IMG/VR virus record: IMGVR_UViG_2667527993_000018
Origin: a virus
Lineage: Duplodnaviria > Heunggongvirae > Uroviricota > Caudoviricetes
Strand: one strand, 5' to 3'
DNA length: 38,304 nt
This document shows positions 1 to 10,072 of the stretch, one piece after another; position 1 is the stretch's first letter; every line of letters begins with the position of its first letter. Below the pieces are notes generated by a model that saw nothing but the letters and a program-made list of their open reading frames with translations, had not been told where the DNA came from and made no database searches. The position numbers and the translations under genes are program-made.

Positions 1-696
1 TCATTCATCCTCCTGATGCGTGGTAGCGGTCCCATTGAAGGGCAAAATAAAATCACCCAAACAGAAAACAGATTCTTCAGCCACGGATATAAGCTGCCCG
101 TTCAAACGCAGTGAAACGGGCGCAGAAGTTCGAATCGCAATACGCTGCGCGTCGAGCGTGACCTGTAATTCGCAGCCCTGCCAGAACAGAGGGAAAGACA
201 ACTGTTGCCACTGCTCCGGTAACGCCGGATTGAGATGTAATTCACCGTCACGCACGCTCACCCCGGCAAAACCCTGAATCGCCCCCAGCCAGATAGCGCC
301 AGTTGCGGCAGCGTGGATACCATCATCACAACTATGCGGATCAGCACCAAGATCGATTTCAGTCCCCTCGCGCCAGAACTGATAACTTTGGGTCAGCAGG
401 CCACAGCGTGCGGCAACAATGCCGTGGATTGCTTTACTTAATGACGAGTCGTGAATAGTGCGCGGTTCATAAAATTGCAGATTGGCAAGACACGATACCG
501 CTGAGAACTGCTCCGGCAGCATGTAATTGAGCATCACCACATCAGCTTGTTTGAGGATCTTATAGCGCGGCGATTTTTTTGATACCGATTTGCATTTCAT
601 TTGATACAGCTGAAAAACGCCGATACGCAACTTATTTGATACTAAATCGGCGCTTTTCTTTTGAGTTTTAGAATGAGTTTTTAAGCGCTCATTCAC
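1..696 (-). pseudogene. C-terminal fragment of a GH65-family glycoside hydrolase/phosphorylase, probable host gene interrupted by the prophage right end
   Basis: Translation from about 560 downward carries GH65-like C-terminal motifs (KQADVVML, YEPRTIHDSSLS, DDGIHAAATGAIW); stop codon at 1-3. The apparent ATG at 696 and first ~45 codons overlap the mom stop and putative phage end, so the true N-terminus is missing or phage-derived. Confidence 0.4.
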
Positions 697-1426
697 TCTC
701 TTTCAAACCAGCTTTAACTGTTTGTGGTTTTGGGTAAGGCTGGACTTTGAATAGCTTTGTGTTGAGGCGTTTTCTGGCCCTCTTGTTCAGAAACCGGATG
801 TAACGAAACTGTCGGAACTTATGCACACTGGCTCTGTCGATATTAGCCCTCAGATGTTCACCTCGTTGTCCGCCTCGTTTAATGGCATTCCTGCAAATCT
901 CGTGATACCACTCGCCATCAAGTTCATAGAATGTTGATTCATGGCTGCCTACATAATCAAAATTGCTGGCCTGATACACGACACCAAGACAGCCACAACG
1001 CTCATCTGCAAACGACTGAACCCACTGTACCTGCGGATAAAGCTGCCTGATTAGCTTGAGCGCGTAACTGATTGCCCTTGATTCGGAGTTTCTCGGCATA
1101 CAGTCATGCATCCATAGCCGGTTAAGCTCCATATATTCTCGGTTCTGCGTACCCGTTACGACGCGTGCACCACTGTTTGGGTTAAGGGCGTAACCCCATT
1201 GCATTACGCCAACAAGTTCCCGTTCTGAAAATATGCCCAGATGAAGGTAGGAATTATTTACGAAACGGTGGCTGTAATGTTTATTGACGATAACCAGTCT
1301 GGCCAGCCAGCAACTTATTGTCTCAACCCGCAACTCACGGGAGCCATAACCAACGATATTGTCGTTATAGCGAATAAGTTCAGGCGTGCTGATGATACGG
1401 GATGTGACTTGCTTTCTGTTCCCCAC
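689..1426 (-). CDS. mom: Mom-like DNA modification protein (anti-restriction adenine modification)
   Basis: 245-aa ORF at the extreme phage right end, directly downstream of and overlapping a Com-like zinc-finger ORF by ~47 nt, as in Mu com-mom. Not identified by sequence similarity I can verify; call rests on position and operon structure. Confidence 0.55.
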
Positions 1427-1580
1427 GACAGGATTTCCTTGTGTATGTGGGGTGCTCTGTGGCGCTCGGAGATGTGATTTGATTGAGGGTTTTACAGCGC
1501 GGACATTTTACTTCCAGATAACTGAAACTGGCCCGTGCCAGTAGCTTATTGCAGTGTCGGCACCGTATGTTTCGATACAT
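1380..1580 (-). CDS. com: Com-like zinc-finger translational activator of mom
   Basis: [14 protein letters not shown]...EVKCPRCK matches the Mu Com C-x2-C...C-x2-C core (Mu: IRCKNCNKLL...IRCPRCK). AGGAGG lies 9 nt upstream of the ATG at 1580; the ORF track's longer 1625 start is probably not used. Confidence 0.65.
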
Positions 1581-1770: not shown

Positions 1771-1987
1771 ATTGACTTTTTATACAGTGAAGGTAGGATC
1801 GCGCGTAGTATGTAGTATGTTTCAAATCAACAGGATACTACATAAAAGGGAAACCCAGCATAGCTGGAACTATGCTGGGTCAATCTGTAAAAACTTGCAT
1901 CAATGCTTTACTTCGAGCTCGTGGCGTATCCTATGATATTCCCCGGTCTCCTGTAAAGCAGAGATGCATAAAAAGGAGATCTTTATC

Positions 1988-2167: not shown

Positions 2168-2198
2168 CCGGCAGGGAAACCTGCCGGTCGGTATTGTT
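2168..2198. terminator. Probable bidirectional rho-independent terminator
   Basis: Perfect 8-bp stem CCGGCAGG / CCTGCCGG with GAAA loop (2168-2187), T-rich flanks on both strands, between two convergent genes. Confidence 0.5.
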
Positions 2199-2442
2199 AC
2201 ATCATAGTACCGTCAGTTCCGGGCTGAACCGGCTCTGGTTGCTCTACGGGTTGAGGCTCATTTTCCGTGCTGTTTTCAGCCGGAGAACGACCAACCATTC
2301 GGGCCAGCACTTCATCAACATATGCGTCGATTTGTGCCTCAAAATCCTTGCGAACCTGCGCCTTCAGCACGCGGTTCACTTCTTCAGAATAAAGTGCCTG
2401 TTTGACAAGCTCTTCAGTAACCGTGCCTTTAATCTCTGGCAT
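2197..2442 (-). CDS. Hypothetical protein (81 aa), acidic proline-rich C-terminus
   Basis: AGGAG 8 nt upstream of the ATG at 2442; last gene of the esterase operon, immediately followed by the terminator hairpin. Confidence 0.5.
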   Translation of the reverse strand: MPEIKGTVTEELVKQALYSEEVNRVLKAQVRKDFEAQIDAYVDEVLARMVGRSPAENSTENEPQPVEQPEPVQPGTDGTMM

Positions 2443-2477: not shown

Positions 2478-2657
2478 TTAAATCTGACCGGAGTCTTTCG
2501 GCTGCGGCATTACAGCACCGCTTTTTATCTTTTCCTCGGCAGCTGCATCAATTTTATTTCGAAAATAATTGCGAATAATTTTATAACCACCGCTGACAAG
2601 CAACAGACAACAAACCACCGTGCAGAAATACAGCAGGCAGACGTTTATATATGTCAT
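2478..2657 (-). CDS. Small membrane protein (59 aa, one predicted TM helix)
   Basis: Hand translation gives MTYINVCLLYFCTVVCCLLLVSGGYKIIRNYF... with a hydrophobic N-terminal segment; GTGAGG ~6 nt upstream of the ATG at 2657; below the 60-aa cut-off of the ORF track. Confidence 0.4.
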   Translation of the reverse strand: MTYINVCLLYFCTVVCCLLLVSGGYKIIRNYFRNKIDAAAEEKIKSGAVMPQPKDSGQI

Positions 2658-2714: not shown

Positions 2715-4772
2715 TTATGCCGCAGGGGTATTAACCTCAAGGACAACGCTCTCAAAAGACACGCCATAAGTTGCCCCTTTGGTGACATCTGTCAGTGTCA
2801 GCGTATCTTTGGCAGGGGAAAGTGCATCTTTCACCATCTGGAATGCCTGGCCCGGAGTGCCATCCAGCACAGGCGTTACCTGGGCACTTCCCGCCGTAAA
2901 CTTCAGGACAAGTGTATGCCACTGGTTATTGTAGGCTCCAAATGATCCCAGTTTCGTATTCCCCCCTGTTTTATGGTGCATCAGATTTAACTGGCCGCCT
3001 GTTGTCTGGAGATAATACGCCATCAGGAACGGTGTGCCTGTACCACTCATGGTTACACCTTCCGGGACCGTATCGGTGTGGAGGTAAATACCCAGAGCAA
3101 ACTGGCCTTCTTTTACTTCACCTGACAGACGGAATTTACAGGTCAACTGACCACCATGCTTCAGAAGTTCACCGGCTGCATCAGTTCCATGGGTAAGCGC
3201 CCAGGTTTTTCCGCTTTGTTTGGATACGGTCAACGCTTTACCTTCGTCCGTCAGCTGGATTGTACCATCTGTAATTTTCCAGCCCTGAGCCGGGGCTTCT
3301 CCTGCTGATGCTTTAAGTGAAAGCAGCGTACGGAGTGACGGGGATGTCGGATGGGGGGACTCACTGCCTCCTGGCTGACTACCTGTCGGCGCTTCCGGTT
3401 TCCCACCCGGCGCGGGCTGAGGCAGGGCTTCACCATCAGGGGCCACACCGGCAATAAATGCAGAGGTCAGACCTGCATATTTAAGAATTGCTGATGCAAA
3501 ACGATCTGAGACCAGAAAACGGCGCGCCCAGGAGCTAAAATGGGTTGCCCTGGATGCTGTTGTCCAGTTGCCATCTCCCCGTGATTCCGCACCATAATAC
3601 CCGGCAGAAGCGATATCCGGGTCGTGCTCCGGCAGGTTGGTCGCGGTTTTATTACCGAACTCATCGTGCATCAGTGGAACAAAGTGAATGTTCTCGGAAG
3701 CCCGGTTTTTATATCCGCTATAAATGGTTTCATATGCCGCCGGGTTCTTCTCTTTCCAGTCATAGGTTGTGTCACCACATAACCACGGCACACTGTCTGA
3801 TGAACCACCAATACACTGACCGGAGAAAGCACCAAGATCCGCACGGAATTTTTTCACCATCGCAGTAAACTGGGCACCATGCTGGGCCGGGGTCGCTTTA
3901 AGGTCTCCTTCCCCCTGAATCCATACGACAGATAACAGCACATTCTTTGGATTCGCCTCAAGTGCCGCTTTAGTTCGACTGACAAGATCCTGATACAGTG
4001 GGGTATCCACTCCCCAGCGTAGTGACGCCTCGGCTGCACCACTTGCCGGATCGAATGAGCCAACTGCGCCGGTTGTAAAAGCAGAGCCGCCACGGGCACA
4101 GGGAACCAGTAAAATCCCGGCATCAGCAGGAATCACCGGTAATACTTTTTTCGCAATATGAAGTCCCTGCCCCACACAACCATACTGCCCTTTTTTCAGG
4201 TCTGCTTTTGGATGGTTCAGCAGACTCATATTCTGAACATCATGAAGGCAGTGATCTGCTGGAATGATTTCATTGTATTTGCAGGGAATACCTCCGGGGG
4301 TTTGTGTATTCCTGCGTGCCAGCTGCATAATACGTGGATCAGGACGATCATAAGAATCCGGAAGGGGCAACCCTTCACCATAAGATGAAGCATTGGACTG
4401 GCCGGCTATAACAATCACGTAATACCAGGAAGGGGAGCTGGAAGCCGTTTCATTTCCTGCCGGACGGGTATGTGTTTCTGCATTATCCCAGTCTGACGGT
4501 TCAGTAGTACCGGCAACATCAGCACTTAACGGAATGACAGCACCAATACCCGCTCCGGTAATTTCCACGTTCGGATCACCGGATACTGGCCTTACCCACA
4601 GGCAATCCTGTGTATTAAAACTGATGAGACAGTCAGCAAATGTCATTCCTCCTTTCGTTTCAGCAGGAGGAAAGGGAGCCTCAAGAAATGCCGCTGTACC
4701 ACCGGAAACTTTAACGGTAAAGTTTCCGGGCATTGATGATAGTTGAACCCATTTGGACGTCATAATATTCAT
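2715..4772 (-). CDS. SASA/SGNH-type carbohydrate esterase with N-terminal unknown domain and C-terminal lectin-like (ConA/LamG-like) beta domain
   Basis: 685-aa ORF with VIVIAGQSNASSYGEG (GQSN motif of the sialate O-acetylesterase-like SGNH family); ~110-aa N-terminal region with no signal-peptide-like hydrophobic stretch; beta-rich C-terminal ~230 aa; AGGAACAGG upstream of the ATG at 4772. Confidence 0.7.
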   Translation of the reverse strand: MNIMTSKWVQLSSMPGNFTVKVSGGTAAFLEAPFPPAETKGGMTFADCLISFNTQDCLWVRPVSGDPNVEITGAGIGAVIPLSADVAGTTEPSDWDNAETHTRPAGNETASSSPSWYYVIVIAGQSNASSYGEGLPLPDSYDRPDPRIMQLARRNTQTPGGIPCKYNEIIPADHCLHDVQNMSLLNHPKADLKKGQYGCVGQGLHIAKKVLPVIPADAGILLVPCARGGSAFTTGAVGSFDPASGAAEASLRWGVDTPLYQDLVSRTKAALEANPKNVLLSVVWIQGEGDLKATPAQHGAQFTAMVKKFRADLGAFSGQCIGGSSDSVPWLCGDTTYDWKEKNPAAYETIYSGYKNRASENIHFVPLMHDEFGNKTATNLPEHDPDIASAGYYGAESRGDGNWTTASRATHFSSWARRFLVSDRFASAILKYAGLTSAFIAGVAPDGEALPQPAPGGKPEAPTGSQPGGSESPHPTSPSLRTLLSLKASAGEAPAQGWKITDGTIQLTDEGKALTVSKQSGKTWALTHGTDAAGELLKHGGQLTCKFRLSGEVKEGQFALGIYLHTDTVPEGVTMSGTGTPFLMAYYLQTTGGQLNLMHHKTGGNTKLGSFGAYNNQWHTLVLKFTAGSAQVTPVLDGTPGQAFQMVKDALSPAKDTLTLTDVTKGATYGVSFESVVLEVNTPAA

Positions 4773-4862
4773 CCTGTTCCTGAATAAACAGAATTATCAT
4801 ATCCACAGACCGATAAACGCCATTTTGCGTTAATTCAGTAAAGGCCCAACAAAGGGAGCGTC

Positions 4863-5423
4863 TTATTTTTCCGAAACGCTCGCAGGATAATAACGATAAA
4901 GGGTTGAAAGGCCGATATCAAAAATAAGTGCCACCTGTCTTCGACTGACACCCCCGGCCAGTAAACGCCCGACCTGCTCGTATTGTTCCTGCGTGAGACG
5001 ACGGGGTCTGCCGCCGGTTCGTCCCCTTTCACGGGCAGCTGCAAGACCAGCCCGTGTCCGTTCGACAATTAATTCACGCTCCATTTCTGCCAGCGCACCC
5101 ATTATGTGAAAAAAGAAGCGCCCCATGGGGGTTGACGTATCAATGTTGTCAGTAAGACTACGAAAATTTATCCCCTGTTGCTGTAATTCATCTGTCAGCG
5201 CAACAAGGTGGCGCATACTGCGCCCCAGCCTGTCCAGTTTCCAGACCATCAGTGTGTCACCGGGTTTTAGTTTCTTCAGTGCCCGCTTCAGTCCCGGCCG
5301 CTGTGTCGTTTTACCACTCATTTTGTCTTCAAAAATCTGCTCACATCCTGCACATTCCAGCGCATTTCTTTGTAAACCGGTGTTCTGGTCATTTGTTGAT
5401 ACGCGTATATAGCCAATCAGCAT
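4863..5423 (-). CDS. gin: Gin/Hin/Pin/Cin-family serine DNA invertase
   Basis: MLIGYIRVSTNDQ...GRSMRHL... resolvase/invertase catalytic domain plus C-terminal HTH; sits immediately beside the invertible tail-fibre segment. Confidence 0.9.
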   Translation of the reverse strand: MLIGYIRVSTNDQNTGLQRNALECAGCEQIFEDKMSGKTTQRPGLKRALKKLKPGDTLMVWKLDRLGRSMRHLVALTDELQQQGINFRSLTDNIDTSTPMGRFFFHIMGALAEMERELIVERTRAGLAAARERGRTGGRPRRLTQEQYEQVGRLLAGGVSRRQVALIFDIGLSTLYRYYPASVSEK

Positions 5424-5503: not shown

Positions 5504-5848
5504 ACTGTAAACAGGGCCGCGAATGCCCTGCCATCGAACGGAACGGCTGTTGCAGCGAATAAACTCGCCACTCCAAGAAATATTAATGGTGTCCCATTTG
5601 ACGGAACGCAGGATATAAATATTACATCGGGGATGACGCAGTCTGTGGCTGACTCACGTTATGTTCAAAGCATTCGAAGAGGTTCAAGGTCAACGATTGG
5701 AATGCAATATAATATTTTTGAAGTTCCTGACGGATGCGTACTTACAGGGCTTGATGTCGCTGGTGATGGTAATGCAACGGTAACCGCATATTATCGACCT
5801 GTTCAGTTTCTGATAGATGGTTCGTGGAAAACAGCTTCCAGCGCATAA
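5486..5848 (+). CDS. Alternative tail-fibre C-terminal segment (S'v), promoterless and start-less in the current orientation
   Basis: Frame opens right after a TGA at 5483-5485 and encodes NLGLRDTVNRAANALPSNGTAVAANKLATPRNINGVPFDGTQDINITSGMTQS..., nearly identical to S residues 176-230, then diverges to a different tip; inversion would fuse it in frame to the constant part of S. Confidence 0.65.
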   Translation, partial: NLGLRDTVNRAANALPSNGTAVAANKLATPRNINGVPFDGTQDINITSGMTQSVADSRYVQSIRRGSRSTIGMQYNIFEVPDGCVLTGLDVAGDGNATVTAYYRPVQFLIDGSWKTASSA

Positions 5849-5866
5849 AAGTGCAGTAGTTCAAAA
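5490..5866. repeat. Gin-proximal arm of a ~165-bp imperfect inverted repeat flanking the invertible segment
   Basis: About 5478-5650 on the plus strand aligns at roughly 80% identity (hand alignment) with the reverse complement of about 6705-6878. The coordinates given here are approximate; the repeat starts at the gix site. Confidence 0.4.
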
Positions 5867-5927
5867 AACAGATTATCTGAATAAATATATGATGATTTTG
5901 TCTTTTCAACAAAAACAAGGTGAAATA

Positions 5928-6449
5928 ATGGAGCTTATTAACGTAAAACGATATTACCCGGAACACAAACCCTATGGTGAGGATGTTCAGTATTTCCAGA
6001 GTGAGGACGGAAGGGATTTTTATGAATCTATCCCGCTTTTCACAAAGAAATACAAACTCTGTATTTCGCCTGTAACGGGTATTATCTGCTCTGTTGCTGA
6101 AGATGTCTCTGCTTTATATCCGGCAGGTTTTACTGTTGTTGAAGTGGACGAACTGCCGGAAGGTGTGAATATTGACGGTAACTGGCAGTGTTCTGATGGC
6201 CTGATATCAAAGGTGCCGGTAAACTGGAAGACGGTTGCTGAAAAGCGTCGCTCATCGCTGCTCCAGGAAGCCAACGAAACCGTGGATGACTGGAAAACAG
6301 AATTAAAACTGGACATGATTAGCGATGAAAATAAATTACAGCTGACGCGCTGGATGGCGTATATCCGACAGCTTAAAGAAATGCACTTTAATGATATTGC
6401 CAGTGAGGGGCATTACCAGGCGATTCCCTGGCCGGAAAAACCGGAATAA
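5928..6449 (+). CDS. Tail-fibre assembly chaperone (U'), partner of S'v
   Basis: 174-aa ORF with AAGGTG upstream of the ATG at 5928, directly downstream of S'v on the same strand; size and C-terminal features typical of Tfa/U proteins; AT-richer than neighbouring phage DNA. Confidence 0.7.
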   Translation: MELINVKRYYPEHKPYGEDVQYFQSEDGRDFYESIPLFTKKYKLCISPVTGIICSVAEDVSALYPAGFTVVEVDELPEGVNIDGNWQCSDGLISKVPVNWKTVAEKRRSSLLQEANETVDDWKTELKLDMISDENKLQLTRWMAYIRQLKEMHFNDIASEGHYQAIPWPEKPE

Positions 6450-6483: not shown

Positions 6484-7395
6484 TTACACTGAACTTACCG
6501 TTCTCCAGGCATTATTAATATAAATCTGAACCGGGCGATAATAGACCCCACCGATATTGTCCGCAGACCGGGAGCCGGTTTCCTGCACGTTAATACCGGA
6601 AAGCATACAACCGGAAGGTGCGCTGTAATTCCATGATATTTCATTGCCTCCGGGTGAATGATAGCTCTGTGCTCCAAGCTGAACATTCTGTACATACCGG
6701 CCATCTGCGGTTGACTGCGTCATTCCTGACGTGATGTTGATATCCTGCGTTCCGTCAAAAGGAACGCCATTAATATTTCTTGGGGTGGCGAGTCTGTTTG
6801 CTGCCACGGCGGTTCCACCCGATGGCAGGGCATCAGCAGCCTTATTTACCGTTTCCCGTAAACCGACGTTATCGATAAAAGCGCCTTTATCCGGAATGTC
6901 TGCGCCGTTCTGCTCCCTGCGCAGGTAACGGTTATCACCTTCGCTTTTGCTGTAAACATCCAGATTATTACGGGCGGTTCCCGCATTCTCCAGGTCGGCA
7001 AGGTTCTGATCCTTCGCCAGAGCATTAACGTCACCGGGACCAAGACTGTTTTTTGTGGCAAGCGCCCCAAGACCAAGATAACCACGGGCAAGACGCTGGG
7101 CTTCCGCACCGGCATCAGCAATTTCTTTCAGGTTGTTTTTCCGGGAAAAGGCATTCGCAGCGATAATGGCTTTAATGGACAGCGTAAGCTGGTTTAACTG
7201 CGCCTTATCCGGCTGAATACTGGCTTCAGCCAGAATATTCAGCAGTTCGGCCTGGAGAATATTCAGCCAGTCCTGACCAATCCAGCTGATACCTTTTTGT
7301 CCGTCACCTTCGGTAAACCAGGTGGTGGTATTACTCTGCGCCGGTGCCAGCGCAGGCATATTCGCCACGCCGGAATTATTATCAACATGAAACAT
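6484..7395 (-). CDS. Tail fibre protein S (constant N-terminal part plus currently expressed variable C-terminus Sv)
   Basis: 303-aa ORF after the baseplate genes, start overlapping the stop of the upstream gene (TAATG); C-terminal third lies inside the invertible segment and is paralogous to S'v. Confidence 0.8.
   Translation of the reverse strand: MFHVDNNSGVANMPALAPAQSNTTTWFTEGDGQKGISWIGQDWLNILQAELLNILAEASIQPDKAQLNQLTLSIKAIIAANAFSRKNNLKEIADAGAEAQRLARGYLGLGALATKNSLGPGDVNALAKDQNLADLENAGTARNNLDVYSKSEGDNRYLRREQNGADIPDKGAFIDNVGLRETVNKAADALPSGGTAVAANRLATPRNINGVPFDGTQDINITSGMTQSTADGRYVQNVQLGAQSYHSPGGNEISWNYSAPSGCMLSGINVQETGSRSADNIGGVYYRPVQIYINNAWRTVSSV
6853..6878. other. gix-like crossover site inside S (gin-distal)
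   Basis: Minus-strand reading TTATCGATAACG-TC-GGTTTACGGGAA; crossover falls in S codons D-N-V-G-L-R and preserves reading frame on inversion. Confidence 0.6.
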
Positions 7396-9462: not shown

Positions 9463-10072
9463 CATTCTCTGGTCCTCCCGTTTTGCTGCCTTCACCGTTA
9501 TCGTGATGCACATGACCTGAATAGGTGATCCCGGCAATAACCGCTTCGGACATCGTGAACGTCCCCTGTGATCTTCCGGTGCCGTCAATGGACACATTGC
9601 CTTTGACATGCAGGTTCTTATCCACTGTGACATTACCGGTAAAGTGAGCCTCCGGTGTATCCACCTGAACACCTTCATCGGCGTAAATCTCCAGCGTCTT
9701 ACAGGTCACAATGATCCGGCCGTTCTTTGTCAGACGTATACGGTGCCCCTCATGGTGATACACGCCGGTATCTCCGGCGGTAAGTCCGGTCGGGCGACTG
9801 CGGCGGTCTTCCACCACAAGCACCACGGCCTGATCCCGTTGTCCGCCAGCACAGGCCAGAAAAACTTCCGCACCAGGCAGGGGGACGCTGATTTGCCCGT
9901 ACTGCTGGGGGCGTTCAACGTCATCAAAGGTTTCACCATCCATACCGGTGATTTGCACATTCTGGATTTTCAGCGTGTCCGTTGTGCCGGTCAGTACACC
10001 ACGCCCGAACAGCAGACGAACACCCCGCATCACGGGGGCCAGAAGGCGGCTGATGACTTCGTCATTCATCAT
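9458..10072 (-). CDS. Baseplate assembly/spike protein, Mu gp45-like
   Basis: 204-aa ORF, position and size as in Mu-like baseplate clusters. Confidence 0.65.
   Translation of the reverse strand: MMNDEVISRLLAPVMRGVRLLFGRGVLTGTTDTLKIQNVQITGMDGETFDDVERPQQYGQISVPLPGAEVFLACAGGQRDQAVVLVVEDRRSRPTGLTAGDTGVYHHEGHRIRLTKNGRIIVTCKTLEIYADEGVQVDTPEAHFTGNVTVDKNLHVKGNVSIDGTGRSQGTFTMSEAVIAGITYSGHVHHDNGEGSKTGGPENG

Follow-up and report, generated by a model that had tools for sequence, protein, structure and literature searches.

The stretch of DNA considered here, which we call the window, is the whole of IMG/VR virus record IMGVR_UViG_2667527993_000018 (38,304 nucleotides), and it is a Sp18/Mu-like prophage of Escherichia coli read on the minus strand. 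Besides Mom, Com, and Gin, it encodes baseplate proteins of the gp45/46/47/48 type, tape measure, sheath, and tube proteins, the major head subunit gpT, Mor, Gam, a B-like ATPase, a Mu transposase, and ner. Our subject is a gene of the nanS-p type that stands in the order tail fiber, gin, nanS-p, DUF1378, DUF826, com, and mom (Table 1). RefSeq holds the same open reading frame (ORF) as WP_077787235.1, a "DUF6645 domain-containing protein" found in many genomes, that of E. coli strain 6817 among them. The true start of the gene is probably its second ATG, at position 4763 (MTSKW...), which gives a protein of 682 amino acids, because the upstream ATG is missing in the orthologue from locus L003, the spacing of an ACAGG Shine-Dalgarno sequence fits the second ATG, and most homologues begin there.

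The initial annotation of this gene had proposed a three-domain protein without a signal peptide, which Pfam, structure prediction, and hydropathy all bear out. Pfam places SASA at residues 119 to 315 (E value, 1.6e-13) and DUF6645 at residues 537 to 647 (E value, 8e-26), and residues 1 to 116 have no Pfam match, even at E values up to 10. An AlphaFold2 model, for which the input alignment held 15 sequences, has folded parts at residues 9 to 81 (beta), 116 to 432 (alpha/beta), and 480 to 681 (beta-sandwich), separated by disordered linkers at residues 82 to 112 and 435 to 478, and contains no trimerization feature, coiled-coil, or beta-helix. Neither a signal peptide nor a transmembrane segment was found, the maximum Kyte-Doolittle(15) value being 0.85 in the first 60 residues and the maximum Kyte-Doolittle(19) value 1.44 overall.

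Table 1. Features of the nanS-p locus; positions are those of the window unless another locus is named (aa, amino acids)
Feature	Position	Strand	Remarks
mom	689-1426	-	Pfam Mom (E value, 6e-77); right-end gene of Mu-like prophage
com	1380-1580	-	Right-end gene of Mu-like prophage
Terminator-like hairpin	1852..1881	-	Strong; 13-bp stem and T run; 3' of the cassette, before com-mom
DUF826 gene	2197..2442	-	Last in the nanS-p/DUF1378/DUF826 cassette
DUF1378 gene	2478..2657	-	Small membrane protein; cotransferred with nanS-p, as in lambdoid phages
nanS-p-type coding sequence	2715..4772	-	Single uninterrupted ORF, 685 aa at its longest; stop codon, 2715-2717
C-terminal domain, aa 480-685	2718..3335	-	Lectin-like jelly roll (Pfam DUF6645); homologous to NanS-p C-domain 6YP6
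Linker 2, aa 434-479	3336..3473	-	Disordered; Pro/Gly/Ser rich
Catalytic SASA/SGNH domain, aa 113-433	3474..4436	-	Homologous to E. coli NanS/YjhS
His411 codon	3540..3542	-	RATHFSS block (catalytic His block, "RSSH/RASH" in NanS-p); invariant in homologue alignment (PMC10462455)
Block I motif GQSN, aa 124-127	4392..4403	-	Nucleophile Ser126; blocks as in PMC10462455
Linker 1, aa 96-112	4437..4487	-	Disordered; evolutionarily unconstrained (nonsynonymous polymorphism about equal to synonymous, pN ~ pS)
N-terminal domain, aa 4-95	4488..4763	-	Small, predicted cupin-like beta-barrel; without Pfam family; putative distant PHROG 4772 member; in place of DUF1737
gin-nanS-p intergenic region	4773..4862	-	Conserved blocks CTGAATTnnCGCAAAA, TATnnTnA, and ACAGG Shine-Dalgarno
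gin-type serine invertase gene	4863..5423	-	Immediately upstream of nanS-p
Invertible G-like segment	5486..6870	.	Alternative tail-fiber tips and tail-fiber assembly gene; bounded by 182-nt inverted repeats
Inverted repeats of G-like segment	5486-5667 and 6689-6870		182 nt; 79% complementary
Alternative tip and assembly genes	5633-5848 and 5817-6449	+	In the present orientation
Tail-fiber ORF	6484-7395	-	Intact in the present orientation; reads into the G-like segment
Separate N-domain homologue genes	L057:9992-10213; L058:9675-10204; L053:1255-1497; L059:~9680-9929		Several lambdoid prophage contigs

The enzyme itself belongs to a family with known structures. In a phmmer search of the PDB, residues 108 to 432 match NanS/YjhS, the 9-O-acetyl-N-acetylneuraminate esterase of E. 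coli O157:H7 (3PT5; E value, 3.7e-110), and residues 481 to 682 match the C-terminal domain of "NanS-p" from phage phi24B, vb_24B_21/gp84 (6YP6; E value, 1e-41). Foldseek comparison of the AlphaFold2 model gave template modeling (TM) scores of 0.83 to 3PT5 and 0.87 to 6YP6, followed by concanavalin A-like lectins such as VIP36, ERGIC-53, and calreticulin and the mammalian sialic acid esterase SIAE, and the PHROG 143 profile matches residues 65 to 684 (E value, 3e-273). The alignment of 15 homologues shows no variation at Ser126 of the GQSN motif, at Q286-G287-E288 and D290, or at R408 and H411 in the RxxH block; the SGNH-variant catalytic blocks (GQSN Ser, QGE..D, and R-x-x-H) are known for NanS and NanS-p (PMC10462455). 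The earlier identification of an SGNH/SASA carbohydrate O-acetylesterase with a beta-rich, carbohydrate-binding-like C terminus therefore holds, as evidenced by the GQSN motif, the SASA match, the similarity to 3PT5, and the lectin-like domain. As a label, it named the correct class and was too vague, since NanS-p is a described family whose documented substrate is the 9-O-acetylated sialic acid of mucin.

NanS-p enzymes de-O-acetylate 5-N-acetyl-9-O-acetylneuraminic acid (Neu5,9Ac2) as well as mono-, di-, and tri-O-acetylated mucin glycans, supporting the growth of enterohemorrhagic E. coli (EHEC) on them (PMC8065619), and are thought to be released when the phage lyses the cell (PMC8065619, PMC10462455). 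The window gene almost certainly encodes a sialate 9-O-acetylesterase of this family, and its 54 to 68% identity to characterized relatives suggests that the protein would act on Neu5,9Ac2 and mucin O-glycans. The initial annotation had also allowed for a cytoplasmic substrate. In favor of an enzyme that works inside the cell on some acetylated compound, in a lysogen or in the course of infection, there is only the missing signal peptide, whereas the lectin-like carbohydrate-binding domain, the homology to NanS, which processes exogenous Neu5,9Ac2, and the documented activity of the family on mucin glycans together with its release by lysis (PMC8065619) make it very improbable. The gene is thus not a new kind of enzyme, for it has the catalytic domain, catalytic blocks, lectin domain, and prophage origin of NanS-p and likewise lacks a signal peptide. 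It departs from described NanS-p in having no DUF1737 and in its nonlambdoid location.

Canonical NanS-p begins with DUF1737 (PMC10462455). A 2026 preprint on phi24B showed that gp84 is a virion component, that its DUF1737 forms a hexamer in the hexon pores of the capsid, and that the protein is later clipped at its linkers (10.64898/2026.04.10.717836); time-dependent autoproteolysis at the linkers has been reported for gp84. The window protein has a different N-terminal domain. Modeled alone with AlphaFold2, it forms a compact all-beta barrel with a predicted local distance difference test score of 86 to 90 over residues 11 to 70, as against the helix plus three strands of DUF1737 (10.64898/2026.04.10.717836). 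The ratio of nonsynonymous to synonymous substitution rates (dN/dS) in this domain is 0.13 to 0.38, among pairs with unsaturated dS, compared with about 1 or more in the adjoining linker. It is a real domain of about 90 residues under purifying selection. Distant homology to DUF1737 was ruled out, with no Pfam match at E values up to 10 and an hhalign probability of 0.1%. The C-terminal end of linker 1, ASSSPSW, is a junction motif in common with DUF1737-type proteins (SSEPEW).

The best 120 homologues of the esterase fall into two architectures, of which one is DUF1737 plus SASA plus DUF6645 (mostly 612 to 657 amino acids) and the other, a class of 656 to 735 amino acids, carries the N terminus of the window protein at 51 to 98% identity. 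Among 1.8 billion representatives searched with phmmer, the N-domain was seen only fused to the esterase, including one 27%-identical version from Salmonella/Serratia; a match to a low-complexity repeat protein (P0126) in that scan was regarded as noise. Other searches for the domain returned three fragment clusters only (word index), nothing (GTDB species representatives), and, by tblastn against INPHARED, Mu-like inserts in two Shiga toxin (Stx)-phage records only. Elsewhere in the prophage, no paralogue of the N-domain, for instance within a structural protein, was found at E values below 0.4.

Which N-terminal module an esterase carries goes together with the phage that encodes it. Our tally covers 134 esterase loci gathered by homology searches, which makes it a biased sample. 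The new N-domain is fused to the esterase in 48 of these loci: a Mu tail-fiber assembly gene lies upstream in 42 and Gin in 37, Com lies downstream in 38, and a Q or P2 marker occurs in none. DUF1737 is fused in 76 of the 134, with holin S downstream in 41, P2 LysB upstream in 26, and a Mu backbone marker (Gin, gp48, or Com) in none. Across all 134 loci, the upstream, backbone-side markers give no exception to the pairing of N-domain class and backbone. The lineages of the new class that were looked up (P0016, P0050, P0090, P0102, and P0123) and 34 IMG/VR contigs all have the gene in a Mu-like prophage, at the same position. The class comprises only 4 to 5 lineages, and their backbones diverge in concert as a whole. 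DUF1737-type genes of lambdoid prophages stand in the order Q, nanS-p, DUF1378, DUF826, and holin, and a divergent DUF1737 subtype belongs to P2-like prophages, where its genes lie between those for lysis and gpR/gpS.

Two Mu-type loci (L026, 763-3734; L038, 3554-6520) have Gin or Mu baseplate genes upstream and lambdoid holin S downstream. Their downstream DUF1378/DUF826 genes are of the lambdoid type (45 to 51% identity to those of the window), and their holin S is 97 to 99% identical to the lambdoid one. These IMG/VR contigs could reflect recombination between Mu-like and lambdoid nanS-p copies or an assembly chimera. Also, three loci of P2-like prophages (L048, L050, and L051; gene at 7001-~8900 in each) encode a divergent DUF1737 N terminus ("SKNFALITAM...") and have no DUF1378/DUF826; holin, endolysin, and LysB genes flank the esterase on one side and the tail-completion genes gpR/gpS on the other, so that a third phage family carries the enzyme.

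Comparison of individual loci indicates how the modules move. Between locus L003 and the window, identity is 97% for the N-domain, 100% for Gin, and 99% for DUF826, in contrast to 67% for the catalytic domain, 38% for the C-domain, and 59% for DUF1378. Moreover, the C-domain of the window protein is nearest to those of DUF1737-type proteins (56 to 59%) rather than to those of other Mu-type proteins (31 to 44%). Together, the two patterns imply that phage families have exchanged the enzyme core, the N-domain remaining with the backbone. DUF1378 was swapped along with the core and DUF826 was not.

Free-standing relatives of the N-domain emerged when IMG/VR was searched with the Salmonella version as an intermediate. 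This search found the fused form again, in a more divergent Mu-like phage (L052), and also contigs in which the homologue is a separate ORF of 72 to 81 amino acids upstream of an esterase without an N-domain (L053, L057, L058, L059, and L060). The separate ORF ends 10 to 90 nucleotides before the esterase gene, which has its own ATG, and in L058 it is duplicated in tandem, the upstream copy encoding 104 amino acids. Where flanks are identifiable (L053, L057, and L058), the pair follows a tail-fiber gene and/or a DUF4376-type fiber-assembly gene; a tail-assembly chaperone gene lies 3' of the pair in L057 and L058, and L058 and L059 keep the lambda-type tail gene I upstream. These small ORFs belong to PHROG 4772 (E values, 1e-17 to 5e-29). 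The fused N-domains match the same profile more weakly (Salmonella, 8e-6; L052, 4e-4; window, 5e-3 over profile positions 11 to 77 of 79), and an hhalign comparison of fused domains with small ORFs gave a probability of 86.7% (E value, 4e-6; 65 columns). The split small gene and its esterase form a fusion/fission pair with the Mu-type protein. PHROG 4772 also includes ORF168 of Dickeya phage LIMEstone1 (E value, 1.5e-37) and orthologues in other Ackermannviridae, and there it is paired with the gene of a confirmed structural "tail needle knob" protein in a unit of two genes that has a late promoter and a terminator.

Other N-terminal variants also occur. An esterase downstream of a gin homologue (L055:6750-9071) has another N-terminal module of about 60 residues, which matches PHROG 895 (E value, 7e-10). 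The L054 esterase has a short N terminus only, and a macro-domain-like ORF lies nearby in the tail-fiber region.

The initial annotation had placed the gene outside the tail gene cluster. In fact, it shares the strand of the tail genes and is the next gene beyond the invertible tail-fiber segment and gin; in one relative, which keeps no more of gin than a remnant of the 3' end, the esterase gene comes directly after the tail-fiber assembly gene. This position at the end of the tail-fiber module, together with the split homologues between side-tail-fiber and tail-assembly-chaperone genes, would suit a tail-anchored receptor-modifying enzyme that de-O-acetylates O-antigen, capsule, or sialylated or acetylated lipopolysaccharide (LPS) and so exposes or destroys the phage receptor, and removal of LPS O-acetyl groups by NanS-p has been raised as an open possibility (review, PMC8065619). 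We nevertheless consider such a role unlikely. In structural alignment, the catalytic domain shares 54% identity with sialate-specific NanS, Neu5,9Ac2 and mucin glycans are the substrates of those family members that were tested (PMC8065619), and phi24B uses the same catalytic and lectin core in a capsid protein, not a tail protein. The proposed likeness to podovirus esterase tail proteins found no support either: beyond the generic SASA core, no homology to the tailspike esterases was detected, and the model lacks trimerization and beta-helix features; the only "tail protein" profile matched, phrog_25867, did so at an E value of 1e-6 and was confined to residues 211 to 315 of that core.

The nanS-p/DUF1378/DUF826 cassette lies between the tail-fiber/gin module and com-mom in the window and between the Q antiterminator and holin in lambdoid prophages; a cassette known from lambdoid phages is thus present in a Mu-like genome. 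Upstream of it, the intergenic blocks are kept across Mu-type lineages whose N-domains share only 51 to 66% identity, which suggests a conserved regulatory element or a promoter of nanS-p's own. A search for a sigma-70 promoter upstream of nanS-p gave only weak 9/12 matches, not above shuffled expectation, and no convincing -35 element.

The place of the gene between gin and com-mom, with a conserved upstream region of its own and a terminator, is typical of a moron, and the gene may be purely that: a soluble NanS-p that benefits the lysogen, is released by lysis only, and never enters the particle. The N-domain would then be a second carbohydrate-binding module or an oligomerization domain, and its association with Mu-like backbones an accident of descent and recombination. 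Cupin domains often dimerize. Consistent with a moron, NanS-p proteins are documented as growth-promoting esterases for lysogens (PMC8065619), and classical Mu-type phages are described without a gene between gin and mom, the gin-mom region of SfMu measuring 1.5 kb (PMC4406740). Also, LIMEstone1 ORF168 is not a confirmed structural protein. A moron, however, leaves unexplained why N-modules are specific to backbones and exist as free-standing small phage genes, why split versions sit inside tail-fiber loci between fiber and chaperone genes, and why one such module, DUF1737, is experimentally a capsid anchor (10.64898/2026.04.10.717836). We regard this alternative as the main rival explanation, possible though less likely than not.

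The best explanation as a whole, which we hold with about even confidence, is that nanS-p is cargo of the Sp18/Mu-like prophage and that the N-domain serves as a virion adaptor. The esterase would free Neu5,9Ac2 and mucin O-glycans of their 9-O-acetyl groups, yielding sialic acid that E. coli can use, and would get outside when the phage lyses the cell. The N-terminal beta-barrel of about 90 residues would be a phage-type-specific adaptor, equivalent in function and unrelated to the DUF1737 capsid anchor, that holds the esterase on the Mu-like virion, most probably at its tail-fiber/baseplate end, and the flexible linker would give the enzyme and lectin domains access to glycans around the particle, whether mucin or others that are sialylated or acetylated. 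For virion anchoring through the N-domain taken by itself, our confidence comes close to even without passing it. We propose it because the N-module is strictly paired with the phage backbone and is kept with it while the enzyme core is swapped, because all three module types exist as free-standing small phage proteins, and because the domain is linked to esterases by a fusion/fission relation inside tail-fiber loci. Gene neighborhoods hint faintly that the attachment is at the tail-fiber/baseplate end rather than the capsid.

Several considerations count against an adaptor on the virion. First, the placement on a virion is deduced from genes, and apart from Mu-like inserts in two Stx-phage records, INPHARED contains no isolated phage with the locus. 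Second, the window N-domain taken alone matches PHROG 4772 weakly (E value, 0.005), so its putative membership depends on the intermediates and one profile-profile match, and ORF168 is itself absent from the confirmed structural proteins of LIMEstone1. Third, the ends of late operons are classic insertion sites for morons, and a position beside tail genes is no proof of a structural role. Finally, the bias of the 134-locus sample bears on the pairing of module and backbone, and the N-domain could have stayed with its backbone simply because recombination breakpoints lie within the conserved catalytic domain.

If N-terminal modules do act as adaptors, NanS-p esterases might form a general class of mucus-processing enzymes displayed on virions, with N-terminal "plugs" that are interchangeable and suited to the particle. 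In this extension, which is tentative and which we credit at less than even, DUF1737 would fit lambdoid and P2-like heads, the PHROG 4772 type would fit the tail-fiber/baseplate end of Mu-like phages and some lambdoid siphoviruses, and PHROG 895 would be a further plug. PHROG 4772 would then gain its first function, as a tail-associated adaptor that is either fused or a separate subunit, and Mu-like prophages in E. coli strains that produce Shiga toxin (STEC) would make particles armed with a sialate esterase and a lectin.

The exact 3.1-kb locus is present in 38 of 5,426 complete E. coli genomes, also at different insertion sites, and the N-domain lineage (at least 95% nucleotide identity) in 205 of the 5,426, many of the listed carriers being O157:H7, O26, or O111 strains from cattle or humans. 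The two Stx-phage records mentioned above (LC727881.1 and LC727895.1; L002) are Stx-converting phage genomes into which a whole Mu-like phage has been inserted, with an annotated 4-bp target duplication. Mu-like prophages do not respond to mitomycin induction (PMC2669165). These inserts have their own nanS-p allele, whose N-domain is 96 to 97% and catalytic domain 67% identical to that of the window.

Further observations concern the neighboring genes and the prophage end. The DUF1378 product has one predicted hydrophobic helix, and DUF1378 and DUF826 travel with nanS-p in lambdoid and Mu-like prophages and are absent from P2-like ones. The roughly 570 nucleotides between DUF826 and com (1626-2196) hold a frameshifted hypothetical ORF on the plus strand, a RefSeq pseudogene at 1695-2158, which includes a Cys-rich 64-residue ORF at 1964-2158 (CPAC...CPAC). 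At the right end of the prophage, a minus-strand ORF (1-696) runs from Mu-end sequence into a truncated host gene, whose part we take to be the C-terminal portion of a glycoside-hydrolase/phosphorylase-like protein. In strain 6817, an identical prophage instead interrupts a short-chain dehydrogenase/reductase (SDR) oxidoreductase gene, and the different insertion sites are consistent with transpositional insertion.

In the literature searched, nanS-p appears as a gene of DUF1737-SASA-CTR architecture that belongs to Stx and other lambdoid prophages. Our literature search, which was incomplete, found no paper on nanS-p in Mu-like prophages or on the N-terminal module of the window protein, and an earlier mention is possible; one paper that joins "Mu-like prophage" and "acetylesterase" describes an Acinetobacter baumannii genome and is not about nanS-p. 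Strains have several nanS-p copies, whose products make the O-acetylated sialic acids of mucin available as a carbon source. Besides lambdoid prophages, Mu-like and P2-like ones carry this enzyme core; nanS-p copies evidently recombine across phage families, which may drive prophage mosaicism and chromosomal rearrangement in STEC. What distinguishes this locus is the swapped N-terminal module and its tail-associated relatives, the enzyme family itself being known and structurally characterized. The strict pairing of module and phage, together with the demonstration that DUF1737 is a capsid anchor, leads to the testable prediction that the window module anchors to a different virion. This offers a candidate role for PHROG 4772, an uncharacterized phage protein family, and in combination with the phi24B result it turns the display of NanS-p on virions by exchangeable anchors into a concrete hypothesis.

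Among known systems, the closest are the NanS-p proteins of Stx and other lambdoid phages (933W L0105/z1466; phi24B gp84, which is vb_24B_21). The SASA domain of the window protein is 63 to 68% identical to those of DUF1737-type representatives and its DUF6645 lectin-like C-domain 46 to 59% identical; both groups lack a signal peptide, have DUF1378 and DUF826 downstream, and have the junction motif before the catalytic domain. The lambdoid proteins, however, begin with the capsid-binding DUF1737, whereas the window protein has an unrelated beta-barrel, so that the hexon anchor through which gp84 decorates the capsid is absent from it. Also, the lambdoid genes lie between Q/stx and holin S, unlike the window gene, which follows the tail-fiber/gin region of a Mu-like transposable prophage. 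The NanS-p proteins of P2-like prophages (P0086, P0094, and P0097) have the same catalytic and lectin core, and their C-domains are the closest to that of the window protein (56 to 57%); they differ in their divergent DUF1737, in their position between lysis genes and gpR/gpS, and in having no DUF1378/DUF826.

Chromosomal NanS (YjhS, 3PT5) has a homologous catalytic domain with the same SGNH-variant blocks (TM score, 0.83; 54% identity). It is a single-domain protein (crystallized chain of 337 residues) that is exported and encoded in the nanCMS operon rather than by a prophage, in contrast to the 685-residue, three-domain, prophage-encoded window protein without a signal peptide. The small proteins of PHROG 4772 are putative relatives of the window N-domain in a predicted small beta-barrel family and always occur beside tail genes or a NanS-p-like esterase; they are free-standing and 72 to 104 amino acids long, whereas the window domain is fused to its esterase through a 17-residue linker. 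Finally, the SGNH-esterase tailspikes of podoviruses, such as gp63.1 of phage G7C, are reportedly virion-borne O-acetylesterases with an N-terminal particle-binding part and O-antigen as the substrate. No relation of theirs to the window protein in sequence or fold was found beyond the general SGNH/SASA core, which in the window protein is of the sialate-specific NanS type.

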